Shown here: piece after piece, positions 2,869 through 19,639 of the stretch
Position numbering within the stretch: position 1 is the stretch's first letter
How the letters are laid out: the number at the start of each line of letters is the position of its first letter
IMG/VR virus record: IMGVR_UViG_3300005337_000001
Coordinates: 131,581-195,580 of that record
Source of the DNA: a virus
DNA length: 64,000 nt
Reading direction: 5' to 3' (one strand)
Position numbers and translations under genes: made by a program
The notes under the pieces: generated by a model
What the model saw: the letters and a program-made list of their open reading frames with translations, nothing else
Databases searched by the model: none
What the model was told of the DNA's origin: nothing

Positions 2869-3208
2869 GTACCCCCCTGAACCTACCAAGGATCCGTACC
2901 AGCTGCTCACCAACCTGTGGTCGTCGCTTCGGCGCGCCTGCGAAGACCACTGGGGAAGCGAGTGCACCATCGACCCGGCTGAAGGAGGCGGCTACAAGCT
3001 CACGCTCCGCTTCGCCGAAGCAATGACTGAGCGCGGCTGGGAGCTCGCGTCCAGGTACGTGCGCAGCTACTCGAAAGCCTCGCACTGGGCGGTCGACAAG
3101 CTCACTCGACGCCAGACGCACATGGAATTGATCGTGGAGCACTCTCCGCCTAAGCCAAAAAAGAAATGGCGTCGAGAGCCTGATCCAGCTCCTCAAAAAA
3201 CTTCATGA
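2867..3208 (+). CDS. hypothetical protein, opposite strand within the packaging block
   Basis: 113-aa ORF fills the 280-nt gap between two minus-strand genes; globular-looking with a basic tail; no clear RBS. Confidence 0.5.
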   Translation: MYPPEPTKDPYQLLTNLWSSLRRACEDHWGSECTIDPAEGGGYKLTLRFAEAMTERGWELASRYVRSYSKASHWAVDKLTRRQTHMELIVEHSPPKPKKKWRREPDPAPQKTS

Positions 3209-3623
3209 TGTAGGTGTCGGGGTCAAGACGCTCCGCGAAGCCAGCGGCTTTGAACCACCAACTGAACATCTCGGCGGTGTACGCCGCCTGCAGTCGTGGC
3301 TGCGTCGCGCGGAAGTAGCGCTCAGCAGCCGGGCTCAGCACGCTGGGGAAAGTGCGCTGCCACTTCACCAGGAACTCACCGTGCACCTGCATCTTGCCCT
3401 GACCGGCTGGCACGTAGCGCTCGCGCGGCGGAAAGAAGTGCACGATGTACGAGCCGTCCTGCACCGCGTACTCGGCGAGGAACGTCGTGAAACCTTTGAC
3501 CTCCGTGAACCTGATCACAGCATCCTTCACGTTGCCGATGAGAACCGGGGCGTCTCCACCAGCCTGCCGTCGTTCGTTGTCGAAAACTTCATCGGTCTGC
3601 TTGGCTGTGTAGTTACTTGGCAT
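3150..3623 (-). CDS. hypothetical protein
   Basis: MPSNYTAK start after GGGGG overlaps the stop of the upstream gene; about 157 aa. Confidence 0.65.
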   Translation of the reverse strand: MPSNYTAKQTDEVFDNERRQAGGDAPVLIGNVKDAVIRFTEVKGFTTFLAEYAVQDGSYIVHFFPPRERYVPAGQGKMQVHGEFLVKWQRTFPSVLSPAAERYFRATQPRLQAAYTAEMFSWWFKAAGFAERLDPDTYIMKFFEELDQALDAISFLA

Positions 3624-4572
3624 CGCCCCCATCATCCACATCTTCGGCGGTGGTTTCAACCTCAACGGGGTCAGGGTGCACGTTGGTAGTGTGATTCCCG
3701 CTCGTAAGCTGAGCAAGGGTCGGTACTTTGTTCGGGGTTGTAGCGACCGAAATCCGCTTCAAGTCCTCGCGCAGCTTGTCCTCGGGGTTCACGAGCGTCT
3801 GCTTGAGGCGCCCCATGATGTCGGCGATCACGGCATAGCCCTGACCCATCTGCGCGTTCAGGGGGCCGCCGGTCTGCACCGACGCGAAGGTACGCAGTAG
3901 CGCTGCCTCCATGGTGCGCTCGGCCACCTCACCCATGTCGATCTTGCGTGGCATCACACCGAGCTCCATCTGCGCCACGAGGCCCGCCAGGGGTGAGCTC
4001 GGTAGCCGCGCCGCTACGACACGTGGATCAGTGTGCCTGAACGCACGCAGCGCTACGTGCTGTTTCTGCGTAGCCGTATCGTCGGACGCCAACAGTCCGG
4101 AGTGCCGTAGTTCTAGCAGCGCTCGCATCTCCATACTCTCGAGCAACTCGATGTTCCAGAAGTAGTAGCGGTAGGTCTTGATACCGTCATCCGTCACCTT
4201 GCCTTGCATACGAACGCGCACCGCATGTGCGATCACTTCATTGGGAGCGCCAGCGAGGGCCATGGATTCGACCAGCTCACGCCAACGCGGCTTGCTCAGG
4301 ATACGCAGCGCCTCGTTGTACGCCCGCGTCGGGTTGAACGCGGACAGCAAGCCCTCACGTAACAGAAAACGGTACGACGGCTTGTGCGTCTCCTCTTCCG
4401 GGCGAAATGGCTTCGGCGGCACCACTCGGTCACGCAGCCACTGGATGTACCAGTCGCCGAGGTAGTCAAGCTTGAGCTCCGCGGAGATGTCCTGGATGTA
4501 CTTGTTCTCGTAACACGCAGGGTGCGCGACCAAGTACCGGTAGTAATTCTCCGCGGGGCTCCGCCGAATCAT
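3613..4572 (-). CDS. hypothetical protein, candidate terminase small subunit
   Basis: 319 aa, helical, HTH-like segment, two genes upstream of terL; function inferred from position only. Confidence 0.45.
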   Translation of the reverse strand: MIRRSPAENYYRYLVAHPACYENKYIQDISAELKLDYLGDWYIQWLRDRVVPPKPFRPEEETHKPSYRFLLREGLLSAFNPTRAYNEALRILSKPRWRELVESMALAGAPNEVIAHAVRVRMQGKVTDDGIKTYRYYFWNIELLESMEMRALLELRHSGLLASDDTATQKQHVALRAFRHTDPRVVAARLPSSPLAGLVAQMELGVMPRKIDMGEVAERTMEAALLRTFASVQTGGPLNAQMGQGYAVIADIMGRLKQTLVNPEDKLREDLKRISVATTPNKVPTLAQLTSGNHTTNVHPDPVEVETTAEDVDDGGDAK

Positions 4573-6806
4573 CCCTGGAAAGCTATCACCTTCAAGCCCT
4601 CGATTACATCTTCGAGGGCGCGGATGGCGCGCTCGATGGCGCCTTCCGACAGCTCACGCATGCCCAAACGGGCGCCGATCAGCAGCTCGCACAGCCGGCG
4701 CTGCGCCTCGTCCAAGGTGGGGAGGTAGCCGATGTAAGTGGCCAGATTCTCGGGGTTGATGAAGCCGAGGCTGAGCACCGAGTCGACGGCAATCGGGTCC
4801 GTGATGGCCGCCGCTTCCTTCCAAAGCCGGTGCCGGAACGTCGGCATCGAGCTCAAGAACTTCTCGGCCTCCACGTAGCTCTCGCCGCGGGCTTCGGCCG
4901 CCGTCTTCAACATGTTGCTGATCCGCACCAGCTGGGGCGTGCCGCCGACGGCGTGCGCCATCTTCTCCAGCGCGTAGCTCGGGTTGGCGCCGAGCCCAGT
5001 CAGCAAGAAGAGACAGGCATCCTGGTTCAAGAACTGCCGCTCCTCCATGGCCAGCTTCTCTACGGAGAAGCCGCGCACGCTAAAGCTGTCCAGGCCGCCG
5101 GCGACTACTTCCACCGACGCAAGCTTCCGCTTCAACGACGCCGTCTTGTTCACATCGGCCGCACTCTCGGCCAGATCGATCTCCGCAGCCGAGTCGAGCG
5201 GCATCCACATCCAACCCTGCGGCACGATCATCAGACCGTCGATGCTGACGATCTGCTGTGCGTACGGCTGCACGCTCACCTGCACTGGCCGGCCATCGAA
5301 CGTCTCACCGTCGAACTTCGGCATCTCGTCGACACCGTTGCCAGCCAGCGTGGCGCCGAGCTGCAGCGGCAGCGTGGCGCACGGGATGCCACCGTACTCA
5401 GTGTAGAAGCAGCCGTGACCCTGCGCCTGCTCCGCTGGCACCGTCGCCGGTGCCGAGAACTCGCCGGCGGGGACGCCGGAGATGTCTGACTGCACCGCCG
5501 CGTGCTGGCCGTCCGTGAATAGCGAGATGGGCAGCGCCGAGCCGTCGATGTCGACCAGGTTCGGAATCACCACACCGGTGAGATCTTCGCCGGCAGTCGA
5601 CTTGACCATGTACATGCCAGGCGCTGAGATGGGACCAGCAGCCACGTGGGATTCACCGGCTTCTTCCTGCACACCTTCGTCGGCGCCCAGCGTCACAGCG
5701 CCGGCCGTGTCTGCAGCCAACGCGATCTTCACGCCAACGCGGCGCACGAGCTCGCCACGGTCCACGCGCTCAGACATTGGCTCCCACATTCTGTGGCTGG
5801 CCGTCTTGATCTCGTAGCCACCCGGCAGCTTCACCACCTGCAGCACGCTGGGCTTCACGTAGTTCAGCATCGCCGACGCACGCTTCTCGACCGTTGACGG
5901 CTGCGCTTCTGCTAGCAACAAGACGGAGTCATACGTCGCCACGTTGTTCGCGTAAGCCAGCTTCGTGGCTGGGTCGATCATCGAATCGCGAAAGTCTTGT
6001 AGGTCGCTGACGTTCGCCGTCGGCAGCACGGCCTCCAAGATGGAGCCCATCTTCATCCCCGCACCACAGGAGTCTTTCTCTTCCTTGACGGCGTAGCTTT
6101 CGAGCTTGGGAACTTTTGCGCCTCTGACGACCACTTCCTTGCCGACCTTCAACGCGCTGGCCAGTTTCAACGCATCGGCTGGTAGCTCGATCGTACGAGC
6201 TGCTTCCTTCTCCGCTTCGAATTCATCGCCAAGATGTGTGAGGTAGTCCTCGAGCGAAGCAATCTTCTTGGACGCGGTCTTGCCACCCATACCGGCGCTC
6301 ATCTGCGCGCCACCGCCACCGAAGCCGTAGCTCTGACGATACGGAGGATAGAGCTGACCGATCATCGACTGGTCACCCGGCGTCTTGCTGGTGACGTCGA
6401 ACGCTTGCGGGCGGAACATCGCCTGGCGCATACGGCTCTCGGTAAGCGGCATCGCCTTGGAGTCGTCCGTGATCACCACGTCGAACGGCATGAGCTTACC
6501 GTCCTTGATGATGACCGGGATGCGCGCCTTGCGAATGCCAGCGGCGTCTTGCTGCTCCTGCGGCGACGTCATCGGAGCCTCGGACTTGCTCGTCACTTCG
6601 ACGTGGCCAAGGCCGTAGCCGCGCTCGCCGTCGACCGTCTCCATCACCACCTCGAGGCTGAAGTCGGCGAGGTAGGGCACCTGCTTGTAGACTTCCTGCA
6701 GCACCTCGTCTTGCCATTGGTTTGGGTCCTCGGGCAGCGTGGTCTCGGCCGCGATCTTGACGAAAACGTGCTTGGGTTCGTGGAAGAGAGGCATCTGCTG
6801 CGTCAT
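4569..6806 (-). CDS. putative virion/internal head protein rich in K-x-A motifs
   Basis: 745 aa; AGGAGA RBS; at least 15 K-x-A triplets; coupled to its neighbours. Confidence 0.6.
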   Translation of the reverse strand: MTQQMPLFHEPKHVFVKIAAETTLPEDPNQWQDEVLQEVYKQVPYLADFSLEVVMETVDGERGYGLGHVEVTSKSEAPMTSPQEQQDAAGIRKARIPVIIKDGKLMPFDVVITDDSKAMPLTESRMRQAMFRPQAFDVTSKTPGDQSMIGQLYPPYRQSYGFGGGGAQMSAGMGGKTASKKIASLEDYLTHLGDEFEAEKEAARTIELPADALKLASALKVGKEVVVRGAKVPKLESYAVKEEKDSCGAGMKMGSILEAVLPTANVSDLQDFRDSMIDPATKLAYANNVATYDSVLLLAEAQPSTVEKRASAMLNYVKPSVLQVVKLPGGYEIKTASHRMWEPMSERVDRGELVRRVGVKIALAADTAGAVTLGADEGVQEEAGESHVAAGPISAPGMYMVKSTAGEDLTGVVIPNLVDIDGSALPISLFTDGQHAAVQSDISGVPAGEFSAPATVPAEQAQGHGCFYTEYGGIPCATLPLQLGATLAGNGVDEMPKFDGETFDGRPVQVSVQPYAQQIVSIDGLMIVPQGWMWMPLDSAAEIDLAESAADVNKTASLKRKLASVEVVAGGLDSFSVRGFSVEKLAMEERQFLNQDACLFLLTGLGANPSYALEKMAHAVGGTPQLVRISNMLKTAAEARGESYVEAEKFLSSMPTFRHRLWKEAAAITDPIAVDSVLSLGFINPENLATYIGYLPTLDEAQRRLCELLIGARLGMRELSEGAIERAIRALEDVIEGLKVIAFQG

Positions 6807-6814
6807 AGAGTCTC

Positions 6815-7459
6815 CTAGCTGGTCTTCAGGATAGCGCCGAGAGCAGCGAAAACGGCAGGGTCTTTCGTAACGATGAGAATACCGCTCACCAGCTCGGCCG
6901 GATTGATGGGAGCAGAGGGACCTAGCCCACTTCCAAATTGAGCTGCAATCTGGGCACCAGTGACACCAAGAGAATCCCCAGTGAACGAGAGCAGATGAAC
7001 CGGCCCGGCCGACAAAGCCGCCGCGGTCTTCGCTACGAATTGTAGTGCCGGGATTTTCACGGCCAGGCCTGCAGCAAGTAGCGCCTTGATGCCACCAATC
7101 TTGAGAGCGAGCGTCGCACTCAGCGAAGCGATGGCAGCAATCTGAGCTGTAGCTTGAAGCGAGATGTTCGGCAGAGGAAGTGCCAGCGCCACAGCCAGCG
7201 AGGCCTGCACCTGGATGAGTGCGGCCAGGAGCGCCTGCAGCGCAGCCAAGGGGTTGCTCACGCCGATGCCGATCTGCAACGCCGCCGAGATAGCGGCGTT
7301 GAACTGCACTTGGATGTCAGCCAAGAACGGACCGAGTCCGAACTGCCCGGTGAGGAACAAATCGAGCTGTAGCAGCAGCGGGTTCATGAGCCCGATGCCT
7401 ACGGCGAGTCCGATGTTGACTTCGCCTAAGGTGTAGCTGCCGAGATCAGTGAGGGCCAT
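6815..7459 (-). CDS. very hydrophobic Ala/Leu/Ile/Gly-rich virion-associated protein
   Basis: 214 aa with almost no charged residues; TAATG coupling to the spike gene. Confidence 0.7.
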   Translation of the reverse strand: MALTDLGSYTLGEVNIGLAVGIGLMNPLLLQLDLFLTGQFGLGPFLADIQVQFNAAISAALQIGIGVSNPLAALQALLAALIQVQASLAVALALPLPNISLQATAQIAAIASLSATLALKIGGIKALLAAGLAVKIPALQFVAKTAAALSAGPVHLLSFTGDSLGVTGAQIAAQFGSGLGPSAPINPAELVSGILIVTKDPAVFAALGAILKTS

Positions 7460-8727
7460 TAAACCAGAATGGTGGAGTTACCGTCGGTTATTACGCCGGT
7501 GCAAGTCAGGCCAACACCTGCGCCGATAAGTGGAGCAAAGCCCGCTGGGTTAGGAGCCACCGCCAAGAGCGTGGGGGGCAACGTCACCGTGACCAAGGAG
7601 CCAACGTGTGCCACGGGGTTGCTGCCGCCGTTGAGCTTCAGAACGGCCGCTGTGATCTCGAAGGTACCGCCTACGGTCATCTTCGCGTCGCTCTTCACGT
7701 TCATGTTGAACGTGTTGTCCGCGAAGATCTCCATCTCGTCCTTCACGCGCAGGCGCAGCTTCTTCTTACAGAGCACGCCGACGTTGCCGTCGAAGCGCGC
7801 GAAGGTGTTGCCGGCGCGATCGAACACGAAGCGCATCTTCACCAGGTTGCCGGTGCCTGGTAGCAGGGAGCCGTCCTCTGCCTTGAAGGCGTTCTTGGCC
7901 AGGGTGAGCTCGTACACGATGGGCTCGGTCTTGCCGAGCTCGACGCTCTGCTCGTCGACGATGGCGTCGCTGTCCGTCTCTGGTACGGGGTCGTGCACGC
8001 GGCCTACTGCGCAACGGATGTCGGCGTACTGGTCGTTGGCGTAGACGCGGAAGGTCTGCTTGAACTCCGTCGGGTTGGTGGTGTCGCCTTCGGATTCTTG
8101 GATGCCCCAGTTGATGGAGCCGCCAGCGTTGTGCAGCGCGTAGTTCTCCGCAAAATCCATGACGAGGTTGTTGAGCGGCACGTACACGCGCTGCGCGAGC
8201 TCGTTCGCCCCAATCTGCAGAACACCACCGCGGTGCAGCACGATGAAGTTCCCGTCACGCCCTCGGATGAACATGTCGCCGGGCTTGCCTCGTGGCCTAC
8301 CGCCAGCGAAGCTGGCAGCCGTTGGCGCCTGATTGTCGCTGGCCCGTCCCTCCGTACCGGCCGGAGCTTCCGATGAATCACCAGCCAGCGGAATGGTCTC
8401 GTGCGGCATCACGAAGGCCAGAACGAACGGCGGCGAGCTGTCGCCCGGCCAGCACACGGCGCACTTCGAGCCCACCTCCGGCACCGCCGTCCAACCGTCA
8501 CCACGGTTCGGGTGTGAGTACGGCGAGCCCACCGGGATGTTGAGCAGACGCATCTGGTCGAACTGACTGAAGACATCGACTGTATAGTTCACAAGGTCGA
8601 CGTTCACCACACGGCCCATGAAGACGTGGGTAGCTCCAAGACCTTCAGGCGCAGTGAAGCTCGAACGGTACTCAGTGCGCGGCTTGACCGCGCCTCGTGC
8701 CGCCTTCATACCTTGGTGAAGGGCCAT
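7459..8727 (-). CDS. baseplate central spike (gp5/gpV-like) with a C-terminal apex/PAAR-like motif
   Basis: N-terminal OB-fold signature GRVVNVD...AVPEVGSKCAV; beta-rich C-terminal half; ends PVAHVGSLV...GVITDGNSTILV. Confidence 0.8.
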   Translation of the reverse strand: MALHQGMKAARGAVKPRTEYRSSFTAPEGLGATHVFMGRVVNVDLVNYTVDVFSQFDQMRLLNIPVGSPYSHPNRGDGWTAVPEVGSKCAVCWPGDSSPPFVLAFVMPHETIPLAGDSSEAPAGTEGRASDNQAPTAASFAGGRPRGKPGDMFIRGRDGNFIVLHRGGVLQIGANELAQRVYVPLNNLVMDFAENYALHNAGGSINWGIQESEGDTTNPTEFKQTFRVYANDQYADIRCAVGRVHDPVPETDSDAIVDEQSVELGKTEPIVYELTLAKNAFKAEDGSLLPGTGNLVKMRFVFDRAGNTFARFDGNVGVLCKKKLRLRVKDEMEIFADNTFNMNVKSDAKMTVGGTFEITAAVLKLNGGSNPVAHVGSLVTVTLPPTLLAVAPNPAGFAPLIGAGVGLTCTGVITDGNSTILV

Positions 8728-11700
8728 CAGTACTTGTGACCTGCCACGTCGTGTAGGTGCTGAAGAGACGGGCGACCTTTGATCGTGTCCTTGTTGAGAC
8801 CGAACTCAGCGCCGTACGCCATACCTGGCACAGGATGCAGGCCGTGGATGTTGGAGCGACCCATCGTGGAAGCGGCTTCGAGGATCGTCTGGCCAAGTCG
8901 CTGATGCTGCAGCTTCGCCATCCAATCTTCTTGCAGCGACAATGGCATCATGTCGACACCCTTGAGCACCGGCTTGTGCTCGATGGGACGCAACCCCTTG
9001 CTCACGAGATCCCGGTTGATAGCGTGAATCTTCGACGTGGGATGAAATTCCCCACGCAGCACGCCTTCATAGTCACCCGGTTCATCGATTTTGGTGAGGT
9101 TGCTCATCGCCTTCACCACAGTCTCTACGTGCTGGCGCTTGATGCCTTCATCTTTGTACAGGCCGTAGACTTCATCCGCCAGGTAATTCTGCACGGACTC
9201 GATGCTATTGGTCGCCTTGTACAGGTCGTGCGGATTCACGAGCGTACGCAACGGGTCGCTCAAGAGCTGCCCGCGCTCCACTTTCATGCCCTGCTTGGGC
9301 GGCACCCAAGAGCTGAGCTCGCCCTTCTCTGTGCTCCAAAGCGGCGCGCCGCCCTCATCCTTGCCGACGTGGTGCTTCTTGCCACCGATGGTGATGGTCA
9401 CGCCCGTCGGGTTCTTTTCAACCTTCTCGATCACGCCCGAGCGCATGGCCAGGGTAGCGGAGTCCGGGATGGTCTTCGGCAGCGTCATGAGCTGGTTGAA
9501 GCGGTCGAAGCCGCCCAGCACCTTGGAGCCGCCGCTGGTGTCCACGGTACCGCCGGTGTGGAAGACGCGCAGCGTGAGCTGCACCGCTCGCTCGCCAAGA
9601 CTTTGAGCCGACGTGACACCCAGGTTCTCGCCGATTTGGTGGACGTGGCCATCCGCTGCCAAGCCGGCGCATTTCTGACAGATGCCCTTGGCGTGCTCGC
9701 ACTTGAGCGGTGAGCGCACCAGTACCTGCGCGTTCTTGTCCGCTGCGCGCATCTTCGAGACGATGCTCGGCGTGAGCATCGTGCCTGCCGGCACGCTCAT
9801 CCCCTTGGCACTGAAGTCCTTCTGCAGAATGCGGTCGTGGACGTCGCGGTCCGTAATGGGCATCGCGATGCCGCGGGTCGTACCGCAGTCGTCGCCGGTC
9901 ACCACGAGATCCATCGTGTTGGCCATCAGCAACTTCGACAGGTAGCCAGGGTCGCGTACCTGCTGCACCTTGAGCACAGAGCCTCGGCGCGCGCCGTGCA
10001 TCTGGGTCCAGTACTCGCCGGTGTCGAGGCCTTCTGCGTAGCTCTTGGTGATGGGCGTGGGGATGACGCGGCCGGCCGCGTCCTCGACAAGCATCGGCGC
10101 CAAGGTCATCTGCTTGTACTGACCCCAGCCTGGCTTCACGCCGGCGAGATGCATCGTCATCAGGTTGTTCGGGTCTTCGGTGTGCGTCTTGAGATGCTCG
10201 GTCTTCATCTGACGGTCGGCTTCCGACCAGATGCGTACAAGCTCACGGTCTTCCGAGGCGCCCGTGAGGTGCGGGTTCTTCTTCACCGCAGCAGCGTCGC
10301 GGCGAGCACCAGTCAGCACGCGCTCGCGCGTCTTGATGTCGGGCGTGAAATCGGAAAGCCCCAACGTGTGCACGCCGATGGGCACGTGAATATGCTGGCC
10401 AGGGTCGAGACGGTTGGCGCCGGCGAATTGGCTGTGCTCCACCGTGACCACACCACTCGCTGCGCCGTTGCCGATGTCCTTGAGCTTGTCGGCCACGCTG
10501 CCGTAGTCGCCGGTGTGATCGCTGGCTACCGTGGTGAGCAGCTTGTCGAGGCCCTTCTTATCGAGGTGGAAGTCCAAGTCCTCGAGCATCTTCTTCTGCA
10601 TCGACTGCGGCAGCGCTGCGGCGATGAGGATGCGGCCGGTGGTCGTGACCTGCCCGTCGATGTTCACCTTGTCGTTGATATGAAGCTTCCCCTTCTGAAC
10701 CGCCGTAATGGCGTCGGCGGGGTGCTTCATGGCAACAGCCTTCTTGTCGTTCGAGCGCGTGAGCTTGTAGAGCCCGAGCGCCGACTCAAGAGTCGGCTGG
10801 TACATCACCCGGCCCGACGCCTCGCTGAAGAGATTGTTCGAGGGGAACATCTTGCGAGCTTCATGAACCGCCTCATCCGAGATGGGCACGAACACGCTCA
10901 TGGTATCGCCGTCGAAGTCGGCGTTGTAGCCGCCGGTGACGAGCGGGTGAATCTTGATGGCGCTGCCCTCGACCACCTTCGGCTTGAAGGCCTGCACGCT
11001 GTACTTGTGCAGCGACGGATCGCGCTTGAGCATGACGGGGCGCTCTTCCATGACGCGCTGTAGCGCACGCTGAGCCTGCAGCCCGCCCTTCGCCACCATC
11101 TTTTGAGCCTCGGCCACGTTCTCCGCAACGCCGCTCTTCTTGAGCTGGTTCACGACGAACGGGGCGAAGAGCTTCATCGCGTGCTCTTTGGGCAAGCCCA
11201 CCTCATCCAAGCTGAGTGAGGGCTCAGGCACGATGGTCGACCGCATACTCATGTCCTGCTTGCGGCTGATGAGCGTACTCTGAAAGTAGCCGGTCTTCGG
11301 CGTGGCGCCACTGATCTGATGGAGCAATCCCTTGTGCGCTGCGTCCTTGTACGGAACGCCGACGCCCATGATGGCCTTCACGCCGTCGTACAAGTTCTTG
11401 CGCAGGTCCGACTTGTTCAGGTCGGTGAGGTTAGTCATCAGCGTCGGATCGCGCATCTGGTCGTTGTTCTGCGCGAACTGTGAGTAGAGCTGGTTGATGT
11501 CGGCAAAGTTGAAGTTGCCGTCTTGCATCACCGTCACGGGGCGCAGCGCCGGCGGCAGCACCGGGATGCTGTGCAGCACGTAGGCCTCGTCTGGCTTCAT
11601 GTGACTCTCTTGCAAAGCCTGCAAGCGCTTCACCTTCTTCAACACCTTGTCGACCTTGGACGACGCCGTGGTCGAAAGCTCCTTGCGCGCCGCCGACAGC

Positions 11701-14700
11701 TCGCGGTCCACGTCGATGTGCGAGAGCAGCTGCTTCACCGCCGCACCGCCGGTCACACCCTTGCCAAGCTCCACGATCTTACCGTGCTTGTCGACGGCGT
11801 GCGTACCGTTCACTAGGCCGGTGTAGTCGTTGTCGGTGAGCCCCGTCAGCATGCGAATGCTGTCCTCGAACACAGGGTTCGGGATGGGCTCGGCCAGCTC
11901 GATGCGGCTCCACTTGCGACCGCCATGGCCACCCGTGAGCTTCTCGTCGAAGAGCCCGCCAGGCTTGGGGCGCGGGTCGCCCGTCTTCGGATCGACCTTG
12001 GCGTAGAGGAGCTCGGCAGGCTTGGGCAGCACACGATCGCCGGTCAGGTCCTTGATGTGCTTGTCGGTGAGCGGGGAGAGGATGAACTCGTGCCCCTTCT
12101 TCTCCATGTTGATGCCCATGCCCTGCAGCATGTCGGTGAACTTCTTGAAGGCGAACGTCGGCTTCGGCGTCGGCAACGGATCGCCGTGCTGAATCGCGTC
12201 CCACACATCGTGGTGCTGGCTTTGCCACTGCTTCTGCGGGCTCACGCTCGGGTCCGGGCCCTCGCTCTTCCACGTCTGCATCTCGCGGATGTTGGCGCGC
12301 GCGCCGTGCGCCAGTAGGGCGTAAAGTCCCAAGGGGTCCATGGACTGACCACCGGCGTGGCCGCCGCCCGAGGGCTGCAAGTTGATGTCGTACTTCTCGA
12401 CGTCGCCGCCAGGCAGGTTCAAGCCCGACCGCACCGACACCTTCTTGTCGACCTGGTGGTGCAGCTTGATCATGTGCTGGAAGCCGACCAAGGCGTCGCC
12501 GAGCTTCTGCTTGTTCGACGGGTCGTACAGCGACTCCACGTCACTAATGCCGTGCTTCTTCAACTCGGACTGCACGTTGGCGAGCTGGTTCTCACCGTCG
12601 AAGTTCTGCACGAGGTACGGCTTGCCGGTCTTCTTAGCAATCTTGCTGGCCGCCGTCTCTAACACCTGGCCGATGTTCATGCGGCCCGGAACGCCAGACG
12701 GATTGAGCGCCACCTCGATGTGCTTGCCATCCGGCGTGTGCGGCATCTCGTGGTCCGGCACGATCTTGGTGACGATGCCTTTGTTGCCGTAACGGCCAGC
12801 GAGTTTGTCGCCCACCTGCATCGGCTCGATGGCTTTCACGTGCACAACGACTTCACCATCGCGCTTGAACGCACCTACCACCTCGCCTGCGCCCTCGCCC
12901 TCCCACGTGAGAGAACGGTCGGCGTACTGCTCACCCAAGCTCTTGCGAATAGCCGACAGTCCCACACGATCTTGGACGTTCGACTTCTTCATCGACAGCA
13001 CAAGAGGGTCACCAGGCACGACGCGGGTGCCTTTCTTGATGAGCCCATCATCGCCGATGTTCTCCAGCTGGTTCCGCAAGTACAAGCCAGGGTGCTGCGC
13101 CAGGTAGCGCTTCTTGGCCAGGATGGTCTCGTCGTCGACCGGGAGATTGTGCTTGTAGAGATGAACGCTCGACAGCTTGTCGGCGGCGCTCTGGCTGATG
13201 ACGATGCCGTCTTCGAAGTTGTAGCCCTTATAGGGGATGTAACCGACACGCAGGTTGGTGCCGAGAGCGATAGCACCGTTCTTCGAAAAGTTCGTGTCGG
13301 CAATGGTCTGACCGGACTTCACCTTGTCGCCGACACTGACGAGCGCCGTAGAGTCGAGCACGGACTTGGCATCGTTGAGTGGGTAGTTCCTGTAGATCTG
13401 CACCTCGTGGTTCCTGCCGTCCTTGCCGGCAATCACGATGGCGTCGTTCTTCACCGCATGGACCACACCGTCCACTGGTGATTGGTGCGAGGCCTGCGTG
13501 CCGATAATTTCCTCAAACGTCTGACGCCCTTCTCTGCCGACACCGGTGCCGACCTGCACCAGCGGCGCCTCACGGTGCACGAGCGAGATGGCCTGCTCCA
13601 TGTGCCGGGTGGCCATGGAGGCGCGCCCGCCGGAGGTGTTGTTGATGAACGGGATGAGGTTCGACGTGATATTGAAGAACTGCGAGGGGTGCCTCATCAC
13701 GTAGTCGGCGTCCTTGATGTGGCCCTCGCCGATGTCGTTGCCGGCGTTCGACCACTTCACCACGCCACTCTTCGCCGTGGGCTTGTCCTTCTCCCAGGTG
13801 ACCTGGTCGGGAAGTACAACCTTCGACTGCAAGAACTTGGTCGGCCCCACGTACTCCATCTTGTTCGTGTGCAGGTTGAAGAGCGGCACCTGCGGCTCAT
13901 TGCCGTGCTTGCGCACGCCGAGCGGCATGCGTAACGTCACGCCCGTCTTCGAACCCTCAGGCGTGTGGATAGGGTCGAGGAACGCCATGTGCGACGGGTT
14001 GACGAACTTCACCTCATCGAGAATCTGCTGCTCGCTCTGAATGCCGCCAGGGCCCATCACCGTCGTCTGTTGCGCGGTCGACACCATCTCGACAGGGTTC
14101 ACCTGCTTGGCTACCTGCGCCGCGCTGTTCTTGTGGAACGTCTCGCGGATGGGCTTGTCGAACACCTCGAAGCGCAGCGCGTCGCGCGGGTTTTCAGCCG
14201 TGTTGATCTTGCGCTGCATCTTGGCGCGGATGGACGAGCTCGCCGCCATGATCTTGTCGTGCGCGAAGTCACCCACGCTGCGCAGGTCCTTGAAGACCAG
14301 TGAGTCGCGGTCGTCAGGCTCGGCGCCATTCTGCACCGCCAGCATCTTCTTCGTGGCGCGCGTGAGCGCGTCGCCGTTCACGTGATCGAACGCCTTGCCA
14401 AGCGTGATCTGCGTAGCCTCCGGGCGCATGTCCGTGTTCTTGAACACCTGCACCATATGCTTGGCAGCGTCCGCTTCATTGGGTGGCGGCATACGCTTCG
14501 TCGTGCGGTAGAACTGGTCAACCGTGCTGCCAGCCTTGCGAGCTACCTGGTTGGCTTTGAGGATGTCCTTGCCCCAAGTCTTCTCGAGCTCGCTATCGGA
14601 AACGCCGAGCGTCTGCAGGATCGGGTAGAGCGGCAACTTGGCCTTGCCGTACTCGACACGGAACTCCTTAGACTCATCGTCGAACGTGACGTCGAACGAC

Positions 14701-15116
14701 GGCGCTTGCGAGCTCTGGAAGCGCGTCTCCAGCTGACCAGTCTTGCGGCGGCGCACGTACGCACCAGGCTTGAGCTGCCATTGGTTGTCGACCTGGTATT
14801 CCTGGCCGCCAACAATCTGGCTGTGGCGCCGCGTGATCTTCGGGAGCTCGGCGATGCGCGTCTTCGCACGCACTTCCCTGCCCGTCAGCTTATCGCGAAG
14901 CACCAGATGAGCCACGACCGGCACGCCCCACGTCTCACCGCTCACCTTGGCTTGGTGCTGACCTCGCAAGTCGTCTGGGCTCTTGTCGTCATGAACTTCC
15001 AGCTTCTCGAGCTCGAGCATCTGCGTGCGCCCGTCGATCGGAAACTGCTTCTTGATGCCCTCCAGCGTCCGGTCGCGGAAGTTGTCGAAGGCTTCGTTGG
15101 GGTCCAGGTACGCCAT
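8727..15116 (-). CDS. rpoBC: single-chain DNA-directed RNA polymerase, fused beta + beta-prime
   Basis: beta motifs PIHTPEG, GYNFED, GDKLAGRYGNKG, LNPSGVPGRMNIGQ, KLHHQVD; beta-prime motifs PVLPPALRP, KRDPSLH, NADFDGD (10905-10925), bridge helix HGARRG..GYL, Zn site DCGT..RSPLKC..GICQKC, trigger loop QLTLRVFHTGG; one uninterrupted frame. Confidence 0.97.
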   Translation of the reverse strand: MAYLDPNEAFDNFRDRTLEGIKKQFPIDGRTQMLELEKLEVHDDKSPDDLRGQHQAKVSGETWGVPVVAHLVLRDKLTGREVRAKTRIAELPKITRRHSQIVGGQEYQVDNQWQLKPGAYVRRRKTGQLETRFQSSQAPSFDVTFDDESKEFRVEYGKAKLPLYPILQTLGVSDSELEKTWGKDILKANQVARKAGSTVDQFYRTTKRMPPPNEADAAKHMVQVFKNTDMRPEATQITLGKAFDHVNGDALTRATKKMLAVQNGAEPDDRDSLVFKDLRSVGDFAHDKIMAASSSIRAKMQRKINTAENPRDALRFEVFDKPIRETFHKNSAAQVAKQVNPVEMVSTAQQTTVMGPGGIQSEQQILDEVKFVNPSHMAFLDPIHTPEGSKTGVTLRMPLGVRKHGNEPQVPLFNLHTNKMEYVGPTKFLQSKVVLPDQVTWEKDKPTAKSGVVKWSNAGNDIGEGHIKDADYVMRHPSQFFNITSNLIPFINNTSGGRASMATRHMEQAISLVHREAPLVQVGTGVGREGRQTFEEIIGTQASHQSPVDGVVHAVKNDAIVIAGKDGRNHEVQIYRNYPLNDAKSVLDSTALVSVGDKVKSGQTIADTNFSKNGAIALGTNLRVGYIPYKGYNFEDGIVISQSAADKLSSVHLYKHNLPVDDETILAKKRYLAQHPGLYLRNQLENIGDDGLIKKGTRVVPGDPLVLSMKKSNVQDRVGLSAIRKSLGEQYADRSLTWEGEGAGEVVGAFKRDGEVVVHVKAIEPMQVGDKLAGRYGNKGIVTKIVPDHEMPHTPDGKHIEVALNPSGVPGRMNIGQVLETAASKIAKKTGKPYLVQNFDGENQLANVQSELKKHGISDVESLYDPSNKQKLGDALVGFQHMIKLHHQVDKKVSVRSGLNLPGGDVEKYDINLQPSGGGHAGGQSMDPLGLYALLAHGARANIREMQTWKSEGPDPSVSPQKQWQSQHHDVWDAIQHGDPLPTPKPTFAFKKFTDMLQGMGINMEKKGHEFILSPLTDKHIKDLTGDRVLPKPAELLYAKVDPKTGDPRPKPGGLFDEKLTGGHGGRKWSRIELAEPIPNPVFEDSIRMLTGLTDNDYTGLVNGTHAVDKHGKIVELGKGVTGGAAVKQLLSHIDVDRELSAARKELSTTASSKVDKVLKKVKRLQALQESHMKPDEAYVLHSIPVLPPALRPVTVMQDGNFNFADINQLYSQFAQNNDQMRDPTLMTNLTDLNKSDLRKNLYDGVKAIMGVGVPYKDAAHKGLLHQISGATPKTGYFQSTLISRKQDMSMRSTIVPEPSLSLDEVGLPKEHAMKLFAPFVVNQLKKSGVAENVAEAQKMVAKGGLQAQRALQRVMEERPVMLKRDPSLHKYSVQAFKPKVVEGSAIKIHPLVTGGYNADFDGDTMSVFVPISDEAVHEARKMFPSNNLFSEASGRVMYQPTLESALGLYKLTRSNDKKAVAMKHPADAITAVQKGKLHINDKVNIDGQVTTTGRILIAAALPQSMQKKMLEDLDFHLDKKGLDKLLTTVASDHTGDYGSVADKLKDIGNGAASGVVTVEHSQFAGANRLDPGQHIHVPIGVHTLGLSDFTPDIKTRERVLTGARRDAAAVKKNPHLTGASEDRELVRIWSEADRQMKTEHLKTHTEDPNNLMTMHLAGVKPGWGQYKQMTLAPMLVEDAAGRVIPTPITKSYAEGLDTGEYWTQMHGARRGSVLKVQQVRDPGYLSKLLMANTMDLVVTGDDCGTTRGIAMPITDRDVHDRILQKDFSAKGMSVPAGTMLTPSIVSKMRAADKNAQVLVRSPLKCEHAKGICQKCAGLAADGHVHQIGENLGVTSAQSLGERAVQLTLRVFHTGGTVDTSGGSKVLGGFDRFNQLMTLPKTIPDSATLAMRSGVIEKVEKNPTGVTITIGGKKHHVGKDEGGAPLWSTEKGELSSWVPPKQGMKVERGQLLSDPLRTLVNPHDLYKATNSIESVQNYLADEVYGLYKDEGIKRQHVETVVKAMSNLTKIDEPGDYEGVLRGEFHPTSKIHAINRDLVSKGLRPIEHKPVLKGVDMMPLSLQEDWMAKLQHQRLGQTILEAASTMGRSNIHGLHPVPGMAYGAEFGLNKDTIKGRPSLQHLHDVAGHKY

Positions 15117-15127
15117 GCTCAGCCCAA

Positions 15128-15133
15128 AGTATA
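15128..15133 (-). promoter_or_regulatory. -10-like TATACT upstream of the RNAP gene
   Basis: TATACT 11 nt before the ATG; adjacent 8-bp inverted repeat at 15144-15167. Confidence 0.45.
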
Positions 15134-15217
15134 CCCAGTACCCGCAGAGAATGGCTCGCTTCTCTGCAAGGCCCGCAACTACCCCGAGATAAGAGAGCTG
15201 TATGAAGGGAGCTCTGC

Positions 15218-15367
15218 ATGAGTGCTACCGACCCTAGGGCGAAGGACAAGCAGGAAAACAAACGCCCGGCGAGCACAGGCAAAGTCTATGAGCAGTTGGT
15301 CGAAGACCTGTTCATGGGCGACTCGACCGAGGAGGACGAGGAAGAAGAAACCAACGATACGGAATAA
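15218..15367 (+). CDS. small acidic protein (49 aa)
   Basis: GAAGGGAG RBS; MSATDPRAKDKQENKRPASTGKVYEQLVEDLFMGDSTEEDEEEETNDTE; below the ORF-track cutoff. Confidence 0.65.
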   Translation: MSATDPRAKDKQENKRPASTGKVYEQLVEDLFMGDSTEEDEEEETNDTE

Positions 15368-15375
15368 GTACTGAA

Positions 15376-15477
15376 GTGACAGCTCTCATCATCTGGGCCT
15401 TCGTGGCCGGTTTGCTGAACGGTTTGTTGATGGCAATCCAGGATTTCATTCTGGAGCAAGAAAGGAGGCAAGCGTGA
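15376..15477 (+). CDS. small membrane peptide (33 aa)
   Basis: GTG start; TALIIWAFVAGLLNGLLMAI hydrophobic segment; GTGA overlap with the next gene. Confidence 0.45.
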   Translation: MTALIIWAFVAGLLNGLLMAIQDFILEQERRQA

Positions 15478-16088
15478 TCGTCAACCCCTACACGCCAGAG
15501 GGACAGGCACTCCTGGCGCCCATACCGGGGACGCATATCGTCGAAGATTCGCTTGGACTCGTAGGCTCTACATTCAACGACCCGACTAACTTGGTCCGTC
15601 GATGGACCATCCGAGCGCTCTACACGCCGGTGCGAGGGCGCTCTCTTGGTGGGCTGCGCGCCAAGCTGGAGGACCAGAAGGGCTTCATCACTTTCTGCAA
15701 CCAACGAGACCTAGAAGTGCTGCTGGACATAGCCAGCCCCGGCGGCTACTGCGCCTGGCTCGACGACGAGTACGTTGAGCCAGGCGAGCGCGGGTGGTAC
15801 GGGCTGTGCGTTGATGAGCTGGACCTGCTGGACGACTTGTACGACCGTGAGCTGGAGGCACGGGCCCAATACCCGAACGACGTTGTGCTGCCTCAAGGAT
15901 TGAGCTTCGAGCGCCGCGTACACAACGGCGTGCGCAACGACTTCATCGAGCTCATGTCGTTGCTGTGGGACATCGATCCGGATACCGGCATGGGGCCGGA
16001 CACCAGGATGGTTACTGTCGATCGGCGTTGGACAAGCGTCGAGCGCACCGCCGGATCAGAAAGGCCGAAGCTTTGGCTGCGAGTCTGA
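15474..16088 (+). CDS. hypothetical protein
   Basis: AAGGAGG RBS, GTG start, 204 aa. Confidence 0.7.
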   Translation: MIVNPYTPEGQALLAPIPGTHIVEDSLGLVGSTFNDPTNLVRRWTIRALYTPVRGRSLGGLRAKLEDQKGFITFCNQRDLEVLLDIASPGGYCAWLDDEYVEPGERGWYGLCVDELDLLDDLYDRELEARAQYPNDVVLPQGLSFERRVHNGVRNDFIELMSLLWDIDPDTGMGPDTRMVTVDRRWTSVERTAGSERPKLWLRV

Positions 16089-16681
16089 TCGAGGAAGAGG
16101 AAGTTGAAGAGGAAGAAGAGTCCGAGCTCATGGCATCCGGGTGCGGCTGCGCAATCTGCGCGAACGACATCAAGCTCACCGACGAAGTCTTCCTACTCAG
16201 AATCGTGCACCCGTTCATCGTCGACGGGACGCTGACTTATTACGACATCGTGGAAGCCAACGGGGACTACAAGTACCCGCCGGCGTTCTTCGACTTCGAA
16301 TGCTGGGAGGACGAAGAAGAAGAAATCCGAACCATTCAGGAGGACGTGCCGCCAGTACAGCACTACAACGGCATCATCCTCTGCGACATCTGCGAGAGCG
16401 ACATTTGCCAAGGTGAAGCGATGGGGCTCGCGCAGTTTGGTGAAATTCGACTGTCGGAGCGGTCGCCTAACAACATACTGTCGGCGTCTTTCGTCGGCAT
16501 GGCAGAGCCGCAGCACCTCTGCATCGCGTGCCTCACGCACATGGAAGAGAACCAACAGGACCCAATCTGGCCTGGAGAGATAGAACCAGTACCGAACCAC
16601 GAGGTGTGCGTCGAAGGACTCTTCGAACGCTGCTGGCGTGAAGGGCAGTGCTACTGCCCAAAACGAATCTGTGAGAGCTGA
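15965..16681 (+). CDS. Cys-rich multi-Zn-finger protein with an acidic linker
   Basis: CxCxxC, CxxC, CxxC and CxC clusters; start uncertain (15965, a TTG near 16028, or 16129). Confidence 0.65.
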   Translation: MGHRSGYRHGAGHQDGYCRSALDKRRAHRRIRKAEALAASLIEEEEVEEEEESELMASGCGCAICANDIKLTDEVFLLRIVHPFIVDGTLTYYDIVEANGDYKYPPAFFDFECWEDEEEEIRTIQEDVPPVQHYNGIILCDICESDICQGEAMGLAQFGEIRLSERSPNNILSASFVGMAEPQHLCIACLTHMEENQQDPIWPGEIEPVPNHEVCVEGLFERCWREGQCYCPKRICES

Positions 16682-16705
16682 CCCAAGAAGAGGAAGAGAA
16701 GTTAC

Positions 16706-18007
16706 ATGGCAAGTAAGAAGACCACCGCTGCAGCAACCAGTACCGCCGTCGACCCGAACGATTCCGACGCAGCAAAAACCGTCGCTCAGTCCCTGACCGC
16801 AAACGAAGTCAACGAAGTCGTAGAGGTATGCCTGGCCACGCCCATGGAAGGCTACCCGTCGAAGAAGAACGATGACTGCCTGTGGGGTCTGCCGCTGTGC
16901 GTCGAAGGCGAACCTGGTATCGCCAAGACGGCTCGCATGAAACAGCTGGGCCGCGTGCTGTCGATCAAGGTGAGGTCTCTTTTCGCGGCGCAGCACCCAC
17001 CGGAGGACTTCTCCGGCGCGCTCATCCCCGACGGTAAGGGCGACGCCACTCAAATCTGCCCGCTCTCGCAAGTGCGGGAGCTCATCAAAGAGAAGCGAGG
17101 CCTCATCCACCTCGACGAGCTCAACGGAGCGCCGCCTGCCACACAGGGTGCGCTGCAGAGCTTCATCCACGAACGCGTCGCCGGCGACCAGCCTATCCCG
17201 GGAAAGATCCGCATCGTCGCGTCGCAGAACCCAGCAGAGATTGCGACGGGCGGCTTCGCACTGTCAGCGCCGCTCGCCAACCGCTTCGTGCATCTAGTCG
17301 ATCCAGGACCAACCGCACGCGACTGGATCTCCTGGCTCATGGGCAACACCACATCGCGGCTCAACGCCTCGATGGAACAAATCGAAGACCAAATATGCGA
17401 CGACTGGCCGCAGCTCTTTCCGGAGAGCCAGGCGCTGTTCGCTGGTTTCATGGAGGCCAACGGTGAGGAGCTGCTCCACAAACGACCTGACAGCGGCGAC
17501 CCAGCGGCGAGCAAAGCGTGGCCGTCGCACCGCACGTGGGACTATGCCATCCGAGCTTGGACTACAGCACGCATCCTCGAGAAGAACGACAGTATCCGCG
17601 ACGCCATCATCGAATGTTGCGTAGGGCCAGGCGCCGCTGCAGTCTTCCTCGAGTACATGAACGAGCACGACATCCCCAAGCCCATGGAGGTGCTCAAAGG
17701 CACGTGGAAGCCAGACCAGAACCGCATCGACATCGTGATGGCAGCCTACGTCGGCGCCATCGCGTACGTGAGGCAGCGTCCGACGATGAAAGACAAGATG
17801 GAGCTTGGCGTCCTGGCTTGGGGGAGCATGAAGCAGCTCTTCCCACTCGGACTCGCCGACATCGCAGTGCCAGCCTCAGAAGGCCTGGTGCTAGAGAAGC
17901 TGGGGCGCGCGTCGGGTGACCCAGACCTGAAGAAAGCTGCCAGCGAAATCCTGACCCTGCTGGCCAGGAGCGGTGTGCAGTCATACGTCGAGGAGCGCGA
18001 CACGTGA
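16706..18007 (+). CDS. MoxR-like AAA+ ATPase
   Basis: Walker A GEPGIAKT, Walker B IHLDELN, ASQNP sensor, APLANRF arginine finger, PSHRTW. Confidence 0.88.
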   Translation: MASKKTTAAATSTAVDPNDSDAAKTVAQSLTANEVNEVVEVCLATPMEGYPSKKNDDCLWGLPLCVEGEPGIAKTARMKQLGRVLSIKVRSLFAAQHPPEDFSGALIPDGKGDATQICPLSQVRELIKEKRGLIHLDELNGAPPATQGALQSFIHERVAGDQPIPGKIRIVASQNPAEIATGGFALSAPLANRFVHLVDPGPTARDWISWLMGNTTSRLNASMEQIEDQICDDWPQLFPESQALFAGFMEANGEELLHKRPDSGDPAASKAWPSHRTWDYAIRAWTTARILEKNDSIRDAIIECCVGPGAAAVFLEYMNEHDIPKPMEVLKGTWKPDQNRIDIVMAAYVGAIAYVRQRPTMKDKMELGVLAWGSMKQLFPLGLADIAVPASEGLVLEKLGRASGDPDLKKAASEILTLLARSGVQSYVEERDT

Positions 18008-19383
18008 CAGCACGCGGCTGGGCCGCGCAACACAGGGCTTCAAACCTGGTGATTGCGCGGCTGTACGTGAAACTGCACGCACCTTACCTCTCGCCGACGT
18101 TGTTCGGTCTCATCCCAGTCCCCATGGCGGACCTGCGTAAGATCGCAGGCGGCCCGCTTGCTGTGACCGAGCGGCTCGTCATGTACTACGACCCGGTATG
18201 GGTCGAAGAAGTATCTGTCGAAGTACTGGCGACTGGTCTCGGCCACGAGTGTATGCACTGCCAGCTCAGACACGTCACTCGCGGCATGAAGTACCCAGAC
18301 AAGAAACGCTGGAACATTGCTGGTGATCTCTTCATCAACGGCGCTATGCGCGACGTCAAACGCCAGAAGAAGGTCAGCGGCAAGGCGGTGGGTATGGAGA
18401 CACCGCTCTGGAACTTCCCAGAGTGGGCGCACATGCCCGAGGACTACGGCTTCGAGAAAGGGCTCACCGCCGACGCCTACTACCGACTGCTGGAGCAGTT
18501 CGAAGGCCCTGCCCCAGAGAAGAAAGAGGGCAGCAAGGGCGATCCGGGCGGTGAGTCACACATCATGCGTGGCTGCTGCGGCGGTGCAGCTGGAAACCCG
18601 CTGGGCGCCGAGCTCGAAGGCAACCTGAACGAAACCAGAGGCAGGTCCGAGTCCAACGTGCACGCTATCGCCAAAGCGACAGCCAAGGCGATCAAGGCGC
18701 ACATGGAATCGACAGAGGGCCGAGGCAACCTGCCAGGTATGTGGTCGGAACTCATCAACGTCAGCGACAAGGTATTCAACGTACCGTGGCGCACAAAGCT
18801 CGCCAACGTGCTGCGCTACAGCATCGGCAAGGCGCGCGTGGGAGGCCTCGACTACAGCATGCACCGCGCGTCGAAGAGGTCGTACCTGCGCGGCATCAGG
18901 CTACCCAGCCTGGTGAGCTACGACCCGGAGGTCTGGTTCATCGTCGACAGCTCAGGATCGATGGGAAAGGGGCAGCTCTCCGACACGTCGCGCGTCTGCA
19001 TGGACGTGCTGAAGCAGACTGGCATCACGCAAGCCTGGTGGATGGAGGCTGACGTCGAGAACAAACGAGAGCCGTTGAAAATCAACGTGCGCGACCTGAT
19101 GCACATGGAGATCCGTGGTCGTGGCGGAACCGACTTCCGTCCGGCCGTGAAATTCGCGGCGTCCAGGCGGCCGAAGCCACACATCGTCATCTACATCACC
19201 GACGGTGACGGACCAGCACCGCGCAGACCTCCACAAGGCATCCACTTCATTTGGGTAGTCGTACCATCGCCGTTCCGACGCAGACCTGCCAATTGGGGTG
19301 ACCTGGTTGTGCTCGAAGACGGCTCCAACTTGAAGCCGCTCGGCGCACCCTACGATTGGCCTGACGACGAAGACGCAGCGTGA
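18004..19383 (+). CDS. HExxH metallopeptidase-like + VWA domain protein (DUF2201-like)
   Basis: GHECMHCQLRH, MIDAS VDSSGSM, GRGGTDFRP, IYITDGDG; GTGA-coupled to the AAA gene. Confidence 0.85.
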   Translation: MTARGWAAQHRASNLVIARLYVKLHAPYLSPTLFGLIPVPMADLRKIAGGPLAVTERLVMYYDPVWVEEVSVEVLATGLGHECMHCQLRHVTRGMKYPDKKRWNIAGDLFINGAMRDVKRQKKVSGKAVGMETPLWNFPEWAHMPEDYGFEKGLTADAYYRLLEQFEGPAPEKKEGSKGDPGGESHIMRGCCGGAAGNPLGAELEGNLNETRGRSESNVHAIAKATAKAIKAHMESTEGRGNLPGMWSELINVSDKVFNVPWRTKLANVLRYSIGKARVGGLDYSMHRASKRSYLRGIRLPSLVSYDPEVWFIVDSSGSMGKGQLSDTSRVCMDVLKQTGITQAWWMEADVENKREPLKINVRDLMHMEIRGRGGTDFRPAVKFAASRRPKPHIVIYITDGDGPAPRRPPQGIHFIWVVVPSPFRRRPANWGDLVVLEDGSNLKPLGAPYDWPDDEDAA

Positions 19384-19462
19384 AGTGAAAATACCCCCGA
19401 CAATCAGGGATAAGAAAGATGAAGAGGAACAGCTACACGCTGTCCAAGAAGGAGACTACAAC

Positions 19463-19639
19463 ATGAACCGCATTCTCAAGATTTCGCTCATCTCAGCCGG
19501 CGGCGCTGTCGCAACCGCTCTCGTCAGTGGCCTCAGCTACATCAAAGGCAAGAAGGACGGCATCATGCTGGCCTCCAAGAAGTACGAGTCGCTCAACGCC
19601 TCCCCCGAGCGCGCGACGTCGACTCAGCCGCAAGCGTGA
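19463..19639 (+). CDS. small protein with an N-terminal hydrophobic segment
   Basis: AAGGAG RBS; MNRILKISLISAGGAVATALVSGLSY. Confidence 0.55.
   Translation: MNRILKISLISAGGAVATALVSGLSYIKGKKDGIMLASKKYESLNASPERATSTQPQA

Follow-up and report, generated by a model that had tools for sequence, protein, structure and literature searches.

A putative single-chain β-β' RNA polymerase of bacterial type shared by a large family of tailed phages

Results

A single frame encodes both large subunits

The window analysed here, a stretch of 64,000 nucleotides (nt), is the final 64 kb (positions 131,581 to 195,580) of the IMG/VR virus record IMGVR_UViG_3300005337_000001, and its minus strand encodes, in one open reading frame (ORF) at 8727..15116, the β and β' subunits of a bacterial-type RNA polymerase (RNAP) joined head to tail. 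We consider it probable that this ORF specifies the functional catalytic core of a phage RNAP, and we show that the fused design is common to a very large family of tailed phages of roughly 150-200 kb; far from being an isolated curiosity, the enzyme has a great many relatives of the same design. The source record is 195,580 bp long, has 100-bp terminal repeats, a CheckV completeness of 100% and a G+C content of 60%, and contains one RNAP gene in the whole genome.

The ORF encodes 2129 amino acids (aa) with zero internal stops, β being followed directly by β', and its G+C content at third codon positions (GC3) is 0.85 along its length. Pfam domains fall in the order Rpb2_3 (aa 334-395), Rpb2_6 (548-897), Rpb1_1 (1135-1223), Rpb1_2 (1343-1423) and Rpb1_5 (1696-2013), the best match having an E-value (E) of 2.6e-56. 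Residues were mapped onto E. coli numbering with a 47-sequence alignment, which, with the structure models and fold matches described below, divides the chain into a β module (aa 1-1005, 12102..15116, minus strand) and a β' module (aa 1006-2129, 8730..12101, minus strand). An initial interpretation made from the letters and translations, which we call the sequence-only reading, had described all core β and β' motifs in order in one 2129-aa frame, an intact catalytic NADFDGD, phage genes on both flanks and a chain about 600 aa shorter than E. coli β plus β', and had taken the protein for a minimal single-chain enzyme of bacterial type. This description holds throughout: Pfam order and alignment map agree on the motifs, NADFDGD occupies aa 1398-1404, the flanks carry a terminase, a portal homolog and a replication module, the difference from E. 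coli β plus β' (2749 aa) is 620 aa, and the enzyme is streamlined, without the lineage-specific insertions SI1, SI2 and SI3 or the zinc ribbon.

Conservation was counted over 43 family sequences. The β half carries GPGG...HTPEG at aa 355-388 and, at aa 769-780, the region H lysine motif (GDKxAGRxGNKG) in the form GDKLAGRYGNKG, which is conserved across the 43 sequences; it also retains regions D, H and I as well as the flap and a flap-tip-like helix. The β' half keeps the lid, the clamp helices, the F-loop, the bridge helix and both trigger-loop arms. In its catalytic Mg-binding motif, NADFDGD (10905..10925, minus strand), residues 1400-1404 (D-F-D-G-D) do not vary, and at least 90% of sequences have N1398. 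The second zinc site, formed by Cys 1744, 1806, 1813 and 1816 (9669..9887, minus strand), corresponds to E. coli C814, C888, C895 and C898, three of these being invariant and the fourth present in at least 90% of sequences. What has gone is chiefly insertions: β SI1 is reduced to 11 residues compared with 119 in E. coli, β SI2 to 0 of 103 and β' SI3 to 3 of 188, which together make up about 400 of the 620 residues by which the chain is shorter. The β' N-terminal zinc ribbon (E. coli C70-C88) is also absent, a 32-residue gap with no Cys that is bridged by TGGHGGRKW (11913..11933, minus strand); the rudder is 6 residues shorter and parts of the β lobes are lost. Since the three main residues of the rifampicin pocket are replaced (D516K, H526T and S531T in E. 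coli numbering), the enzyme is predicted to be insensitive to rifampicin.

AlphaFold models made separately for the β and β' halves show the bacterial folds over their full length. The β-half model (mean confidence, pLDDT, 80.4) matches the bacterial chain 9dvs_C with Z 33.4 over 847 aligned residues at a root-mean-square deviation (rmsd) of 3.8, and the β'-half model (pLDDT 80.1) matches 8i23_D with Z 31.3 over 1014 residues at rmsd 4.4. Dozens of bacterial structures tie as best fold matches, and the top ones are all bacterial or plastid chains.

The junction is conserved across a very large family

At the junction (aa ~1000-1012, 12081..12119, minus strand), the β C-terminus GMGINME runs through KKGHE into the β' N-terminus FILSPLTD with no linker domain, at the cost of the last 4 β residues and the first 14 β' residues in E. 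coli numbering. Window 12060-12180, the DNA that spans the junction, reads as ordinary coding sequence. Among 5.8 billion proteins searched, at least 120 clusters (90% identity level) are 55-92% identical to the window protein and nearly all 2120-2160 aa long, on contigs that reach 200 kb. In a search of the β' half against 1.84 billion cluster representatives (50% identity level), the best 150 matches all belonged to the fused family, which puts its size at no fewer than 150 clusters at that level; among full-length, insert-free matches the β' part begins near residue 985-1030. In 70 IMG/VR loci with 39-88% identity, each complete copy is one open frame, mostly of 2060-2220 aa and of 2517-3008 aa where there are in-frame inserts.

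Polymerases of 2400-4739 aa that carry intein or LAGLIDADG domains occur within the family (for example P0007, P0010, P0011, P0017, P0021 and P0211, and at loci that include L042, L045, L057, L058, L065 and L074), with recurrent insert points just after NADFDGD (~aa 1403), near aa 1553-1584 and near aa 1854; the window copy has no inserts. Five family copies (L079-L083) sit in bins of metagenome-assembled genomes (MAGs) labelled Deltaproteobacteria (L079), Dehalococcoidia (a 157-kb contig), Leptolyngbyaceae (a 162-kb contig) and uncultured bacteria. The 157- and 162-kb contigs fall within the 148-191-kb range of the large family records searched and are therefore probably mis-binned phage, as the other three copies probably are too.

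The fused family branches apart from bacteria and from mReC phages

Solved bacterial β' chains from many phyla match the window enzyme about equally (E 1e-98 to 1e-110), and the best genuine bacterial loci are 26-33% identical. The closest isolates are the Vibrio phages D69, D148 and D181 and the Salmonella phage Arash, at ~32% identity over ~90% of the protein. In a tree of 50 rows and 1961 columns (IQ-TREE quick search, LG+G4, SH-aLRT), support was 99 for the fused family (99-100 over the trees built) and 100 for the bacteria, deeper branches being weak (75). A clade with support of 100 unites the fused family with three split relatives (Arash, D69 and L264, IMGVR_UViG_3300035698_022190, a 210-kb contig with an Arash-like split into 1257 + 576 aa, counted as stop-to-stop frames) and with the distant L210 (IMGVR_UViG_3300031722_000008), a very divergent fused form of 2329 aa that is outermost in the clade. 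Membership of mReC, a clade of RNAP-encoding phages that the sequence-only reading had mentioned, finds no place in this tree: mReC a and b form a clade of their own (99), the fused family lies in another (100), and no fetched fused-family contig agrees with an mReC contig in sample and length. On these trees the fused family is a lineage apart from both bacteria and mReC, and does not look like a recent bacterial capture.

The tree gives the split forms no settled position beside the fused family. Because they stand next to it in this way and the outermost L210 is fused, the simpler reading is that the fused state would be ancestral and the split in Arash and D69 secondary, with the caveat of a long branch to L210 and an assumed root.

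Two further observations belong here. In a Candidatus Paceibacterota MAG (L088, DATMBM010000004.1), rpoB and rpoC occupy one 2313-aa frame inside the Patescibacteria branch, possibly a further natural cellular β-β' fusion or a frameshift artefact of sequencing. A scan with Carin-5 β alone yielded no relatives, and Carin-5 was dropped as a stand-in for mReC.

The RNAP gene lies among virion genes

In every family member examined (70 loci), the RNAP gene is inside the portal-to-terminase block, the family gene order being a 446-aa gene, a 277-aa gene, portal, RNAP, a 422-aa gene, a 745-aa gene, a 319-aa gene and terminase. In the window the portal, a homolog of Arash gp204 and D69 0259, is at 19759..21840 and the large terminase at 1060..2970, both on the minus strand. 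Immediately downstream of the RNAP gene is the 422-aa gene (7459..8727, minus strand), whose ATG overlaps the RNAP stop codon (TGATG) and which is kept 3' of the RNAP gene in 60 of the 70 loci. This gene has a weak match to the baseplate family phrog_9992 (E 9e-4) and Atlas feature scores of 0.93-0.95; a resemblance to the gp5 / Phage_base_V (gpV) tail-spike protein is a lead only. In more divergent relatives the portal is directly upstream of the RNAP gene. In the window an inverted 4.4-kb block (15218..19639, plus strand) lies between the two, and it is confined to the subclade in which the RNAP is at least ~48% identical to the window copy, with a conserved promoter-like element at its head.

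A family-wide sigma factor and a promoter-like motif

No α or ω gene was found in the complete genome with PF01000, PF01193 and PF01192, all controls being positive. The genome does encode a 253-aa protein (genome 70058..70819, minus strand, outside the window) that Pfam, PHROGs and a profile search identify as a sigma factor: it matches Sigma70_r3 at 38.5 bits and phrog_351 at E 7.7e-13, its family profile matches solved sigma factors down to E 1.3e-14, at full length for group-3 types, and hhalign gives 87.5% probability against FliA-type sigmas. Its ortholog in Arash is the virion protein gp10 (E 2.9e-18), and the gene occurs in 17 of 19 related records.

A second sigma, of 185 aa with regions 2 and 4, is encoded on the plus strand at genome 9314..9871 (L003:1495-2052), also outside the window. 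It is 56-61% identical to ~280-aa sigmas, annotated as FliA-type, of Polyangiaceae MAGs, and may be a recent capture from the host lineage, a hint of a Myxococcota host. PF04542 is found in 8 of the 19 related records; a single-protein search with the 185-aa sigma itself gave weak matches at 29-33% identity in only 2 of them, and it was rejected as the family partner on account of this narrow distribution and its host-like, captured character. The family copy noted above in a Deltaproteobacteria bin (L079) stands beside this host hint.

Regions upstream of the RNAP gene at 17 orthologous loci contain two conserved blocks with a fixed 17-nt spacer of free sequence. In the window this bipartite promoter-like element, TGCAAG-N17-GATAAGAG, is at 15165..15195 on the plus strand (position weight matrix (PWM) score 27.5). 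It points away from the RNAP gene, to the plus-strand genes at 15218-19639; GAAGGG and then the ATG at 15218 come after it. The general form is GCAA-N14-GGGnATAAGAG, and the PWM built from the 17 loci finds 15 genome sites at or above 14 bits, compared with 0.4 in shuffles. Among the 18 sites at or above 10 bits, ten are followed by a called start codon within 49 nt, at distances of 3-49 nt that are mostly 16-23 nt; immediately 3' of the motif there is usually a ribosome site of the GAAGGA type. Sites are at window 15195, 19416, 25083 and 35991 (plus strand) and, elsewhere, at genome 6897, 12629, 28416, 37285, 61017, 72335, 87891 and others. The motif precedes replication genes (window 25083 and 35991), the operon of the 253-aa sigma (genome 72335) and other non-structural genes, and the two long blocks of virion genes contain none of the sites. 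Its layout resembles that of σ28-type promoters, for which the FliA consensus is TAAA-N15-GCCGATAA.

The pattern recurs beyond this genome. GCAA-N17-19-ATAAGA occurs 8 times in the genome of the window and 0 times in shuffles, and 4-13 times per genome in ten closer family genomes, where a reversed control gave 0 in nine and 3 in the other (G004); GGG before nATAAGA recurs in these matches though the pattern does not specify it. ATAAGA itself is under-represented genome-wide (22 compared with 37 expected), and GGn precedes 14 of the 22, so that most copies belong to the motif. Other approaches gave less: exact k-mer enrichment of upstream regions returned ATAAGAG alone, as a weak lead, a strict GCAAG-N-ATAAG pattern found 2 sites only, and a σ70-consensus scan of window 8-22 kb found no site. 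Upstream of the RNAP gene, a GGnTAnnCT block conserved in relatives includes TATACT (15128..15133, minus strand), 11 nt before the start codon, and may serve the RNAP operon as a -10-like element.

Discussion

Based on these observations, we propose a model in which the fused core would work without phage-encoded α or ω and would pair with the phage's own 253-aa σ70-family factor. The resulting holoenzyme would start at GCAA-N14-GGGnATAAGAG promoters placed 16-49 nt ahead of replication genes, early or middle genes and the sigma operon. The enzyme itself would be made late, with the virion genes, as its portal-terminase position and translational coupling to a spike-like gene suggest, and would then be packaged and injected, so as to begin transcription independently of the host enzyme. 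In support of packaging, mass spectrometry of Arash virions recorded the most spectra for the RNAP piece Gp206 (3516, compared with 1333 for the major capsid protein), and both the second RNAP piece, Gp216, and the sigma Gp10 were likewise detected (PMC10585845). Taking gene position, TGATG coupling and these spectra together, we regard synthesis with virion proteins, packaging and injection as evenly balanced between true and false. The sequence-only reading had proposed a matching promoter system, and this is plausible, since a family-conserved sigma and a conserved, enriched promoter-like motif have been found; the step from motif to polymerase is the conjectural part. More tentatively still, and with rather less than an even chance, the fused family may represent an independent, third line of phage polymerases of bacterial type and a self-contained orthogonal system, comprising an α/ω-free one-chain core, a group-3-like sigma and a promoter class of its own, which would enter the cell from the capsid together with the DNA, the fusion being ancestral.

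Several points weigh against this model. The trees are quick (LG+G4, SH-aLRT only), bacterial sampling is uneven and some branches are long. The activity of fused-family members is predicted from sequences and models. Missing α and ω genes do not show independence, which the sequence-only reading had thought possible for α, as host subunits could be recruited, and the fused β-β' enzyme of Helicobacter still uses α. Redirection of host RNAP by the 185-aa, host-like sigma is another possibility. The motif is unenriched in Arash, in D69 and in the two most divergent family genomes, and likewise in Carin-5; we infer its link to the 253-aa sigma or to the fused polymerase, and a shared host group may let a host sigma read it. 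No promoter of the RNAP operon itself was identified. Finally, packaging is argued from one mass-spectrometry study of a relative at 32% identity, whose authors allow for contamination (PMC10585845).

Of the alternatives, the one that survives best, which we nonetheless think rather unlikely, is that of a hybrid enzyme, in which the fused chain needs the host α dimer, and perhaps ω, to assemble and act. The phage has no α or ω gene of its own, the predicted folds are fully bacterial over the α-contact regions, and cellular fusions keep α. On the other hand, the non-virion polymerases of phiKZ and AR9 work without α or ω (reviewed in PMC7598289); the covalent β-β' link would remove part of the need for α as an assembly platform; and a packaged enzyme would have to bring host α into the capsid.

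We find it unlikely, and less probable than a hybrid enzyme, that the polymerase is a non-virion one, with host RNAP, perhaps redirected by the 185-aa sigma, transcribing early genes, the fused enzyme being made later and transcribing only middle or late genes, and the motif being read by a host sigma or by the captured sigma on host core. The identity of the 185-aa sigma to Polyangiaceae sigmas means that it may still fit host core, the σ28-like layout of the motif and its restriction to closer relatives, possibly of one host group, fit such a scheme, and the Arash authors point out that plentiful proteins of the cell may turn up in particles as contaminants (PMC10585845). However, the motif is kept in relatives of which only 2 of 19 gave even weak matches to the 185-aa sigma, whereas the 253-aa sigma is near-universal in the family; the RNAP gene lies within the portal-to-terminase block in every member, and Gp206 out-counts the major capsid protein in Arash particles.

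It is very improbable that the fusion arose by mis-assembly or from an overlooked frameshift, that the gene is decaying, or that a cellular rpoBC operon was captured recently, concerns that the sequence-only reading had itself raised as artefact, inactivity and nesting within bacteria, for, beyond the five copies in bacterial MAG bins, which are open to misreading as cellular in origin, nothing was found in favour, whereas the junction recurs in hundreds of independently assembled sequences down to 35-39% identity, GC3 is 0.85 along the ORF and the catalytic motifs are intact, with residues invariant or nearly so in the family, bacterial β' is at most ~33% identical and lies in another clade (support 100), the gene sits between portal and terminase, and two of the five MAG contigs are phage-sized and probably mis-binned.

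The phage-borne core with its own sigma, which we favour over these alternatives, can be set beside several known systems. The nearest are the isolated phages Arash (OQ632216, PMC10585845; RNAP pieces Gp206 and Gp216, sigma Gp10) and D69, D148 and D181, in which the β/β' junction is fused alike. In Arash and D69, as for the window enzyme, the RNAP gene is close to the portal, the sigma is orthologous and the enzyme falls in the same clade. They differ in that their enzyme is divided downstream of the catalytic barrel, at about query residue 1495, into ~1525 + 606-609 aa with genes between, whereas the window enzyme is one chain; the promoter motif is, in addition, enriched in the window genome and its closer relatives and not in Arash or D69. 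The Arash paper labels the RNAP pieces β and β' without discussing the fusion (PMC10585845).

The mReC phages (Weinheimer and Aylward 2020, PMC7481178) are likewise uncultured tailed phages of similar size, with deep-branching polymerases whose β and β' are found by ordinary profiles. Every row considered from the published mReC table gives separate β and β' proteins (PMC7481178), and the mReC-type loci that we fetched, which include L193 (149,482 bp) and L213 (152,423 bp), recognised as mReC contigs from their sample number and exact length, have separate ORFs with β' before β. Three mReC-type contigs (L193/L275, L222 and L190/L276) hold two paralogous RNAP sets, again with β' before β, one of β' ~900 aa and β ~1005 aa and the other of β' ~1005 aa and β ~1365 aa. 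In some of the table rows considered, the β and β' labels appear to be swapped relative to the sequences.

The cellular fusions of Helicobacter, Wolbachia and L088 likewise join the β C-terminus to the β' N-terminus in one ORF. These are ordinary enzymes with α and ω, encoded in ribosomal-protein operons, and L088 lies within the bacterial clade; the window enzyme, in contrast, belongs to a separate lineage, lacks SI1, SI2, SI3 and the zinc ribbon, and has a phage gene context. The phiKZ/AR9 enzymes (PMC7598289, PMC7824862) are, like it, phage two-barrel polymerases with no α or ω, one set being packaged in the virion, but they consist of 4-5 polypeptides, occur as two sets and are far more divergent, whereas the phage of the window has one chain, one set and a σ70-family gene; phages of the phiKZ/AR9 type lack sigma (PMC7824862). 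The crAss-like gp66 is a single-chain, two-barrel, packaged enzyme that shares its single chain with the window enzyme; however, gp66 has no similarity detectable by β/β' profiles (PMC7481178), whereas the window enzyme has strong Pfam matches.

We found no published description of the fused family in a literature search with little reach into subscription journals. The isolated relatives Arash, D69, D148 and D181 were already in GenBank, with the enzyme split in two; this analysis adds a comparison with true mReC sequences, a domain map that records the missing zinc ribbon, a separation of the conserved from the captured sigma, and the promoter motif. If the enzyme proved active with sigma alone, it would be the smallest natural bacterial-type RNAP that is still clearly cellular-looking, a one-gene core with no α, ω, lineage-specific insertions or zinc ribbon, and would provide a direct test of what the α dimer, ω and zinc ribbon are needed for. 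It would also be a compact structural target, and a possible source of a one-gene core with sigma and promoter set for orthogonal expression. Widespread phages of ~190 kb would then bring their own sigma-dependent polymerase, a strategy unlike those of phiKZ, N4, crAss and mReC. These predictions are testable now, as cultured relatives exist in Arash, which grows on Salmonella Typhimurium ATCC 14028, and in the Vibrio phages.

Additional features of the window and genome

Downstream of the 422-aa gene, genes of 214, 745, 319 and 188 aa with function unassigned and then the large terminase occupy 1060..7459 on the minus strand, co-oriented with the RNAP gene. A tblastn search with the 422-aa and 745-aa genes against isolated phages gave no matches, and most neighbouring genes have no match in Pfam or PHROGs. 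In the inverted block, an ATPase (phrog_1297) and a 459-aa protein of phrog_1314, which carries the label HNH endonuclease, accompany genes of 49, 204 and 84 aa. The replication module spans window 25-38 kb, and tail and baseplate genes lie at 43-62 kb. A search for a T7-type polymerase (PF00940) found nothing, the control of that search being uninformative.

The genome has tRNA genes for Phe (GAA) and Val (AAC) at genome 11993-12189 (minus strand) and no others. The palindrome CGAGCTCG occurs 164 times over both strands, that is at ~82 sites, ~15 times the expectation from base composition; the excess of CGAGCTCG may reflect a codon effect (Glu-Leu) or a selected site.

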